A DNA stretch of 10,411 bases, taken from the IMG/VR virus record IMGVR_UViG_2690316210_000013. One strand, written 5' to 3'. The stretch's first letter is position 1. Each line of letters opens with the position of its first letter. Made by a program: the position numbers. The DNA comes from a virus (Duplodnaviria > Heunggongvirae > Uroviricota > Caudoviricetes). Shown in pieces: positions 3,001-6,000 of the stretch.

Positions 3001-6000
3001 TTCCGACGCTTTCGCGTTCGTTTCGGATGTCTTCGCTGCGGAAGCTGACCTCGCTGCTGCCGTGGCCTGCTCAGTGGCTTCGCCAGCCTTCGTTGTGGCT
3101 GTTGAAGCGGATGATGCGGCGCTTTCTGCCGATTTTCCGGCGGCGGTGGCACTGGCTGAGGCCTGCCCGGCACTTGTTGACGCGGCACTGGCAGATAATG
3201 CAGCCGCTGTTTTTGAGTCTGCCGCAGCTGAGGCGCTCTGTCCCGCTGCCGTTTCAGAAGACCTGGCGTTCGTCTCGGACGTTTTTGCCGCCTTCGCAGA
3301 ATTTGCTGCCGCCGTTGCCGAGGAAGCTGCGCTGCTGGCGCTCGAGGCTGCGTTCGTTTCTGATGATTTTGCCGCCTCTTTTGAAGCCGACGCATCCCGG
3401 GCTGAGGTGGCAGCTTCTGACGCTTTCGTGGTCGCGGTGGATGCAGAAGTGGCTGCTGATTGTTGTGACGCTGCGGCATTCGTTTCTGACGTTTTCGCGG
3501 CACTGGCGCTGGTAGCTGCCGCGCTTTTTGATGACTCTGCAGCAGCAGCACTTTTTGCTGCTTCACGGGCCTTTGTCGATGCCGTTCCTGCGCTGGAAGA
3601 CGCTGACTGAGCCGACGAAGCGGCCTGTCCGGCTGACNGCAGCCGCTGTTTTTGAGCCTGCCGCAGCTGAGGCACTCTGTCCCGCTGCCGTTTCAGAAGA
3701 CCTGGCGTTCGTCTCGGACGTTTTGGCCGCCTTCGCAGAATTTGCAGCCGCCGTCGCCGAGGAAGCTGCGCTACTGGCGCTTGATGATGCGTTCGTTTCT
3801 GATGATTTTGCCGCCTCTTTTGAAGCCGACGCATCCCGTGCTGAAGTGGCTGCTTCTGACGCTTTCGTGGTCGCGGTGGATGCAGAAGTGGCTGCTGATT
3901 GTTGTGACGCTGCCGCATTCGTTTCTAACGTTTTCGCCGCACCGGCACTGGTAGCCGCCGCGCTTTTTGAGGACTCTGCAGCGGCAGCACTTTTTGAGGC
4001 TTCAGTGGCCTTTGTTGATGCCGTTCCTGCGCTGGAAGACGCTGACTGAGCCGACGACGCGGCCTGTCCGGCTGACGTGCTGGCGGCACGTGCTGAGGCT
4101 GCAGCATCGGTTGCATGAGTTGCCGCCTCGCTGGCTGATGCACTGGCATCGCTGGCTGATTTTTTCGCGGCTGCCGTATTCTGTGCAACCGCGGAGGCGT
4201 TACGTGACACCTCTTCCACCATCTGCTCAAAGCGGCGCAGTGCCTCCGGTCGGACATCATCCTCCGTCATGGCACCGAGAAAATCATTCAGCGTACCGGG
4301 TCGGGAATCTTCATACACGGTGATGGTCCCGGCATGTGACGGCGGGAATCCTTCCACCAACAGAATAACGCTGTACTGACCGTACTCAACGTCCATGCTG
4401 TAACGCCCGGCTTCATCCGGATTTTCTGAGGCCAGCGTGTTCACCACCACCGTGGTGCTGTTACGTTTTGCTTTCAGCTGGATTGTGCAGTTCTGTACCG
4501 GTTTTCCTGTGCCGTCTTTCAGTACACCTGAAATCTTTACTGCCATATTCACCCCACAAAAAAGCCCGCCTGAACCGGCGGGCTGTCATAACACTGTGTT
4601 ACCTGGCTAATCAGAATTTATAACCGACACCCACGATGAAACCGTCAGTGCGCCAGAGACGTGTTGCTGTGGCGACCGTCATCACTTCCGGTCAGCACAT
4701 CGTGCGTTTTCCCCTTATTGTCAGTTACGCGGATATAATCCCCGGAAAAAGTCGACACACGGCTGTAAGCCACACCCGCCATCGCATACGCGCTGAACCA
4801 TTCATTCACGCGCACAGACGGCCCCGCCATCACGCTGAACCAGCGGTTACGCACGGAATCTTCATGCCAGCGGGTATCGCTGTAACGGGTCAGCTGGCGA
4901 TTCTTGTCTCCTGCATAGCTGAATGACGTCACCAGCCCCAGCGTATCCGTAAACTCATAACGGTATTTCACGTTAATCCCGTTCAGATCATCACTGCCGG
5001 GAACGTTGGTCCGGGCATGAAGATACCCCGCGCTCAGCGTGGACTGATGTTCAGACGCCCATGCAGGCGCACCGGATACGGCCAGGCAAATGGCTGCGGA
5101 CAAAATGGCTGCACAAACTTTACGCATAATTACCTCTCGCTTTTCTGCAATAAAAAAGGCGTCATTCCTGACGCCATTTATTGGGGTTATAAATATTTCA
5201 ACGAATACTGATGCCGGAAGCCGCTTTTTTGGTCACAATCACCGTACAGTCGGTGATATTGCCTGCCCCCTGATTGCCTTTCTGGAAAATCTTAAACTCC
5301 AGAGTGACGCTACCACCACTAGGCATATCAATAACTGCACTGTAACTACCGGGAATGGCACCTTTAGTTTCTCTGGATGCGATTAATACGCCGTTTTTGC
5401 GAACTTCAAAACCATAACCCGTGTATCGCGTGCCTCCTGGGTTATTTCCGCTCCCCGGATCGTCATACGCTATACCGTTAAAAATAATGGGCGGAATAAT
5501 AATCTGGCGGTCAAAGTTATGATCATCGCTTATGGTGACTGTAACCGTCCCGTTTGGTGTTTCCGTGTTACCCCACGTACCAGCCTGTTTCGGAAATGAT
5601 TTGGATACAGCTTTAACGAAGTCACCTCTGACCTGAGTCGCCTCCAGCATGCCCTTAATCGTACAGTTTTCATTTACCGTGACATTGTTGAGCGTCCCGG
5701 CGTTCGCATTCACACTGCCACTGATATCCGCATTTTTAGCGGTCAGCTTTCCGTCCGGAGTCAGGGAAAATGCCGATGGATTTCCACCGCTGGTAATGGT
5801 GGGGGCCGTCAGGCGTTTCAGGAACACGTCGTTCATGAATATCTGATCGCCCTGACCAACAAACATCGGTTTTGTGTTGCCATTCGCAGGATTAACCATC
5901 GCAATCCTGTCCGCCGCCAGCAGCACCTGACTCTGCATGCCGTCAGGGGTGTTCTCAATACCGGCACCAATACCCGCGATATAAAGGCGTCCGTCCTGCA

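Follow-up and report, generated by a model that had tools for sequence, protein, structure and literature searches.

The J gene of the prophage studied here encodes a tail-tip protein whose receptor-binding domain (RBD), judged from its sequence, is of the phage 434 ('h434') specificity type, and its receptor can be predicted with good confidence to be OmpC. The window, by which the whole analysed stretch of 10,411 nucleotides from the IMG/VR record IMGVR_UViG_2690316210_000013 is meant, carries this RBD as the last module of a mosaic J gene. The evidence comprises the identity of the gene, its similarity to reference J genes along its length, the predicted fold of the RBD, and what has been reported on the receptors of related phages.

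Gene J, encoding the tail-tip attachment or central tail fibre protein, was located by translation and Pfam searches at positions 5198 to 8657 on the minus strand, with an expected product of about 1164 AA. The start codon lies at 8657, where the N-terminus reads MGKGSSKGHTPREA..., and the stop codon lies at 5198. The reading frame is interrupted only once, by a run of 46 Ns (8548-8593) that constitutes an assembly gap, and the ORF listed at 5198 to 8539 is part of J, the last 1113 codons of which read through. This run is shorter than the sequence it replaces: judging from lambda J, about 31 codons should lie between KST and LDSEGN. Since the length of the N run does not equal that of the missing codons, the change of frame across it is a matter of the assembly and provides no evidence of a frameshift. 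Six Pfam domains, all above their cut-offs, were found in the order FNIII-A_GpJ, Phage-tail_3, Ig_J, Ig_J_second, Phage_Tail_Tip and Ig_GpJ_C. This full gpJ domain series, in conjunction with the gene order K-I-J-lom-stf-tfa, identifies the product as a tip attachment protein J of the lambda type, and along its whole length it is 96-100% identical to the J protein of phi458 at the amino acid level. The peptide (...SDDHNFDRQ...) to which a preliminary description of this sequence had drawn attention is the exact C-terminus of J, and positions 5198-5900 are the 3' end of the gene on the minus strand.

The preliminary description held that J tracks lambda J for about 900 residues and then diverges progressively, which is not borne out by an alignment with lambda J (NC_001416) evaluated in bins of 50 AA. 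Identity amounts to 94-100% per bin over residues 51-800, drops to 35-46% over residues 801-900, where there is also a 33-AA insertion, recovers to 76-84% over residues 901-1000, and falls to 30-38% per bin over residues 1001-1132. The divergence from lambda is modular with sharp borders and shows no progressive decay. The same description was correct in regarding the C-terminus as unlike the LamB-binding end of lambda J: identity amounts to 30-38% per bin in the last ~130 residues and to 41% over the last 162 AA, and a high-identity match to lambda J residues 980-1132 was looked for and is absent.

The borders of the modules are visible in a nucleotide scan of the J gene against five reference J genes. 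From about 8657 to 6350, the window shows 91-100% nucleotide identity to lambda, 21, 434 and phi458. Between about 6350 and 5900, the identity is 94-100% to 21, phi458 and WGPS6 compared to 19-65% to lambda and 434. In the protein alignment, this stretch (5900-6350, minus strand) corresponds to an alpha-helical shaft and upper central-fibre module of the 21/phi458/WGPS6 type, and its 33-AA insertion is present relative to both lambda and 434. Positions from about 5900 to 5700 are conserved in all reference J genes, whereas positions 5700-5198 are 87-100% identical to 434 and WGPS6 versus 36-71% to lambda and 21. The names of the middle module (alpha-helical shaft and upper central fibre) and of the last module (RBD) follow the cryo-EM work on lambda (PMC11101478). 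As read from these alignments, J is a mosaic: the hub and FNIII part are lambda-like, the shaft resembles that of phage 21 and the RBD that of 434, with the junctions lying in conserved stretches. The identical mosaic already exists in phi458, and the combination of the 21 shaft with the 434 RBD is also found in WGPS6.

The RBD comprises the last 162 AA of J (NVTVNENC...GISIR; positions 5201-5686, minus strand) and was classified as a 434-type domain and predicted OmpC binder using alignments, Pfam, AlphaFold2 and Foldseek. Over 162 AA, the four variable loops included, it shares 94% identity with the domain of phage 434 (OmpC), 97% with that of the Stx phage WGPS6 and 98% with that of phi458, and the RBD of phage Evi shows only two differences. 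All other types reach at most 47%, with values of 41% for lambda (LamB), 44% for phage 21 (OmpC) and 47% for phi330 (OmpC). Loops L1-L4 differ from those of the lambda type in length and sequence, and high identity to the sequence of 9wca, which would mark the 21/phi330/A8 (OmpC) type, was not found at 44-47%. When the last 162 AA were compared by tblastn with 50,697 phage records, 74 records were at least 90% identical and the rest were below 60%, the closest among those listed being 45% identical. This bimodal distribution of identities among phage records indicates that the RBD types are discrete.

The assignment of this part of J to a receptor-binding domain is further reflected in its profile and structure matches. 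Pfam PF12421 (Ig_GpJ_C, 'C-terminal receptor binding domain') matches ORF residues 978-1112 with 82 bits against a cut-off of 26.2. An AlphaFold2 model built from the last 204 AA of J reached block-mean pLDDT values of mostly 83-94 in the RBD, with one block at 64-77. The top Foldseek matches of this model are the gpJ RBD structures 9wca, 9wcb, 8xck and 8xcj (E-values of 6e-18 to 1e-15), and a PDB sequence search of the RBD returned the same gpJ entries. Of these, 9wca and 9wcb represent gpJ of A8 in the closed state and in the open state with OmpC of EDL933, and 8xck and 8xcj represent lambda gpJ in the closed state and with LamB. A multiple alignment of RBDs shows a conserved framework in which the variation clusters in four stretches, the pattern predicted by exchangeable specificity. 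Based on their order in the sequence, these four stretches would correspond to the lambda bottom loops L1-L4, which insert into LamB (PMC11101478).

Two further claims of the preliminary description concerned the receptor itself. That it is probably not LamB is supported by the 41% identity of the RBD to lambda with the differences lying in the four variable stretches, and alignment with J proteins of known specificity likewise sets the domain apart from lambda/LamB, while the FhuA-dependent HK022 and phi80 have no homologous C-terminal domain. The view that the specificity cannot be inferred from the sequence is not supported, since the RBD is 94% identical to that of 434 J (OL657226), lambda and 434 J differ substantially only there, and 434 uses OmpC. 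Specifically, identity between the J proteins of lambda and 434 stays at 92-100% as far as residue ~950 and is 30-38% over residues 1001-1132, leaving the last ~160 AA as the only substantial difference between them. OmpC is the receptor of phage 434 and also of lambda equipped with the J gene of 434 (PMC3509688, PMC11101478), and 434 J has been treated as OmpC-directed, with its loops modelled in the OmpC barrel (PMC12502783). Given a domain shared with 434 J at this level of identity, OmpC is the best-supported prediction. The primary source for the use of protein Ib, that is OmpC, by 434 is reportedly Hantke 1978.

Trimeric porins, namely LamB, OmpC or, in evolved lambda, OmpF, are the receptors of all J RBDs of this fold for which a receptor is known. 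Phages with nearly the same RBD have been propagated on K-12 strains (mEp332 on MG1655, phi458 on MC1061 and Ayreon on K12), which points to a common surface component of K-12 as the receptor. A literature search on the receptor of the closest phages (phi458, mEp332, the PhiR series and Evi/2B8) found no direct receptor data, and a preprint on large-scale receptor prediction (10.64898/2026.04.02.716166) deals with GpJ of Drexlerviridae and not with a J RBD of the present type. Phi330, for which OmpC has been determined experimentally, was suspected to be a proxy with the same RBD because the genome nearest to that of phi330, WGPS6, has a 434 RBD, but phi330 was ruled out in this role since it belongs to the 21/A8 type at 47% identity.

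The reach of the classical genetic results and of the term OmpC also has to be taken into account. The sequenced lambda h434 imm21 hybrid (OM418627, 15505-21236) contains 434 J together with lom, stf and tfa of 434 and T3SS-effector morons. Because the hybrid carries lom, stf and tfa of 434 besides J, the classical h434 host-range results leave the contributions of the J RBD and of the side fibres confounded. The OmpC porin itself is polymorphic, with engineered gpJ chimeras of a related kind discriminating between its alleles (PMC11338833), so that 'OmpC' does not define the host strains.

By analogy with the solved structures of lambda J and A8, J would form a trimer that presents three Ig-like RBDs at the tip of the central fibre. 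The four variable bottom loops would, by the same analogy, dock into a trimeric porin at its extracellular mouth, and for the 434-type RBD this porin is predicted to be OmpC and not LamB. If J behaves as proposed for lambda (PMC11101478), receptor binding would spread the bases of the RBDs, and the change would travel up the beta-prism and the shaft. As in lambda, the tail tip may then open, leading to DNA ejection.

The 434-type RBD module is an ordinary, very widespread and already known kind. Its 489-nt segment matches 2,114 of the 5,426 complete E. coli genomes (~39%), mostly at 90-99% identity and with up to 7 copies per genome; the best match among these genomes reaches 97.3%.

The sole unusual feature of the J RBD is a one-codon deletion in the DMPxGxG turn, which is conserved across all RBD types in the multiple alignment. 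The window has a (GGT)2 run (5312-5317, minus strand) and thus DMPSG-GS, where its relatives have GGT GGT GGT or GGT CGT GGT in the alignments. SG[R/G]GS is present in 44 of 44 cluster representatives of this RBD type, and the top E. coli matches are all 3 nt longer than the RBD segment of the window. The location of the deletion in a (GGT)n run suggests slippage. The same deletion occurs in the IMG/VR contig IMGVR_UViG_2529293076_000023, which represents a different prophage with a J backbone that is 85% identical at the nucleotide level. An exact 40-mer across the deletion matched this prophage alone in IMG/VR and had no match in the genome contigs database. As the same deletion is found in an unrelated J backbone, it is probably a real, recurrent or recombined allele and not a sequencing error. 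The J region of the second prophage (~4355-8178) has WGPS6-like RBD alleles, and its J frame is open for the last 354 codons only. Judging by how loops alternate in the lambda RBD, the DMPxGxG turn would lie at the fibre-proximal end and not at the receptor face. That the deletion and the polymorphisms in stretches 1 and 4 together form an adaptive variant, tuning either the recognition of OmpC alleles or the ease with which tail opening is triggered, seems rather improbable.

All genes of the window are located on the minus strand and comprise K, I, J, lom, a long side-tail-fibre gene and a short tail-fibre assembly gene. The upstream genes K (NlpC/P60 and JAB; 9675-10349) and I (9136-9777), both assigned by Pfam, are intact, and Ail_Lom, phage_tail_N and Caudo_TAP were detected by Pfam downstream of J. 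A terminator-like hairpin with a T-run (5158-5175, minus strand) follows 23 nt past the J stop codon, and the annotations of phages 21 and 434 likewise have terminators in this position behind J. Directly downstream of J lies lom (4645-5127), which encodes an Ail/Lom outer-membrane protein truncated to 160 AA and covers positions 1-159 of the 199 positions of the Ail_Lom profile. Compared by BLAST with 434, WGPS6 and phi458, lom has an internal deletion of ~77 nt, and its normal C-terminus DGFIVGVGYKF is out of frame. The deletion is located at a 6-nt overlap of two BLAST segments (4651-4656).

The side-tail-fibre gene (1196-4552) is unusually long at ~3.3 kb, with 1046 bp duplicated in tandem (1526-2571 and 2572-3617) and with repeats spaced by 439 bp in an Ala/Ser-rich region. 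Single Ns are positioned exactly at the repeat junctions (2571 and 3638), where the frame is broken. A repeat array may have been misassembled here, or the fibre shaft may truly have expanded. The tail-fibre assembly gene (752-1021) encodes only 89 AA and matches positions 75-130 of the Caudo_TAP profile only; in phages 434 and WGPS6, a gene of equal size (270 nt) occupies this position. The 752-1021 region yielded no nucleotide match to 434 or WGPS6. This gene is probably a normal short variant and not a fragment.

The alternative with the most weight is that J is a relic in a defective prophage that no longer serves infection. It is compatible with the assignment of the RBD to the 434 type and concerns the present function only. 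The 77-nt frameshifting deletion in lom, a side-fibre gene broken up into different frames around large repeats and individual Ns, and the one-codon deletion in a conserved turn would all fit such a relic. Against it, 1113 codons of J read through, the sole interruption of the frame being a stretch of Ns whose length is arbitrary, and the upstream tail genes K and I are intact. Moreover, the breaks in stf coincide with Ns and may be artefacts of the assembly, and lom is dispensable for lambda growth anyway. A relic is a possibility to be considered, though an unlikely one.

The probability is small that loop changes have directed the RBD away from the receptor of 434 to OmpF, PhoE or another outer-membrane protein, so that its specificity would not be readable from the sequence. 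The window RBD is 94-98% identical to 434 and to cultured phages, and the deletion sits in the conserved DMPxGxG turn outside the four variable stretches. In stretches 1, 2 and 4, the window RBD carries alleles that rank first or second in frequency among the 44 cluster representatives of the RBD type; they are the majority alleles in a family that 39% of complete E. coli genomes contain. What speaks for retargeting is that half of the ten differences from 434, counted over 166 aligned positions, fall in variable stretches 1 (KQAG...N in the window versus KKVG...D in 434) and 4 (GNQG versus GNQR), and that the deletion is absent from the 44 cluster representatives. Stretch 1 corresponds to the long 434 loop that is in contact with OmpC in AlphaFold3 modelling, and stretch 4 aligns with a phi330 hairpin modelled at the OmpC barrel's rim (PMC12502783). 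In addition, a few point mutations can switch lambda J from LamB to OmpF (PMC11101478).

Continued binding of LamB in spite of the divergence is very improbable: the fold and the domain family are those of lambda J, but at 41% identity all four variable stretches, taken as L1-L4, differ in length and sequence, and the near-identical RBD of 434 confers the use of OmpC and not of LamB. A FhuA-type tip as in HK022, phi80 and N15, for which nothing speaks beyond the shared J hub, can be dismissed almost completely, because the alignment of HK022 and phi80 J with the J protein of the window ends at ORF residue ~908 and the C-termini are unrelated, and J is followed by lom and not by cor.

With OmpC as the preferred receptor, the J gene of the window can be annotated as encoding a 434-type, probably OmpC-directed tail tip instead of one of 'unknown specificity', which has little import beyond annotation. 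More generally, the case illustrates that the shaft and RBD modules from which lambdoid J proteins are built can be exchanged and that their specificity types are discrete. In genome scans, the receptor type of J can be called from the last ~160 AA by comparison with the reference types lambda/LamB, 434/OmpC and 21-A8/OmpC.

Among known systems, J of phage 434 (OL657226, UMO75286.1), the classical h434 host-range determinant with OmpC (protein Ib) as its receptor, has the closest RBD for which the receptor is known. Phage 434 and the window have the same lengths in all four variable stretches and the same downstream layout of lom, stf and an 89-AA tfa. Unlike the window, phage 434 has a lambda-type shaft without the 33-AA insertion, and the ten differences between the two RBDs include K/Q, V/A and D/N in stretch 1, R/G in stretch 4 (434/window) and an extra Gly in the DMPSGGGS turn of 434. 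The same 434-type RBD is found in Evi/2B8, phi458, cdtI, mEp332, the Stx phages WGPS6/2851 and Stx1a/Stx2c phages, at 94.5-99% amino acid identity in those listed by tblastn, and none of these phages has the one-codon deletion of the window. Phi458 and WGPS6 also share the 21-type shaft with the window, although the N-terminal hub of WGPS6 is divergent, with 55-89% nucleotide identity over most of it. Lambda J (NP_040600; PDB 8xcj/8xck/8iyk) is 76-100% identical to the window in the hub, the FNIII part and the lower central fibre and has the same Ig-like RBD fold, but it has a different shaft module and an RBD of 41% identity with different L1-L4 loops, and its receptor is LamB. The RBD type of A8 gpJ, phi330 and phage 21 (9wca, 9wcb) has the same fold and is also OmpC-directed, but it represents a separate sequence type that is 44-47% identical and has a shorter L1 and a longer L4 than the window, while phage 21 has its shaft module in common with the J protein described here.
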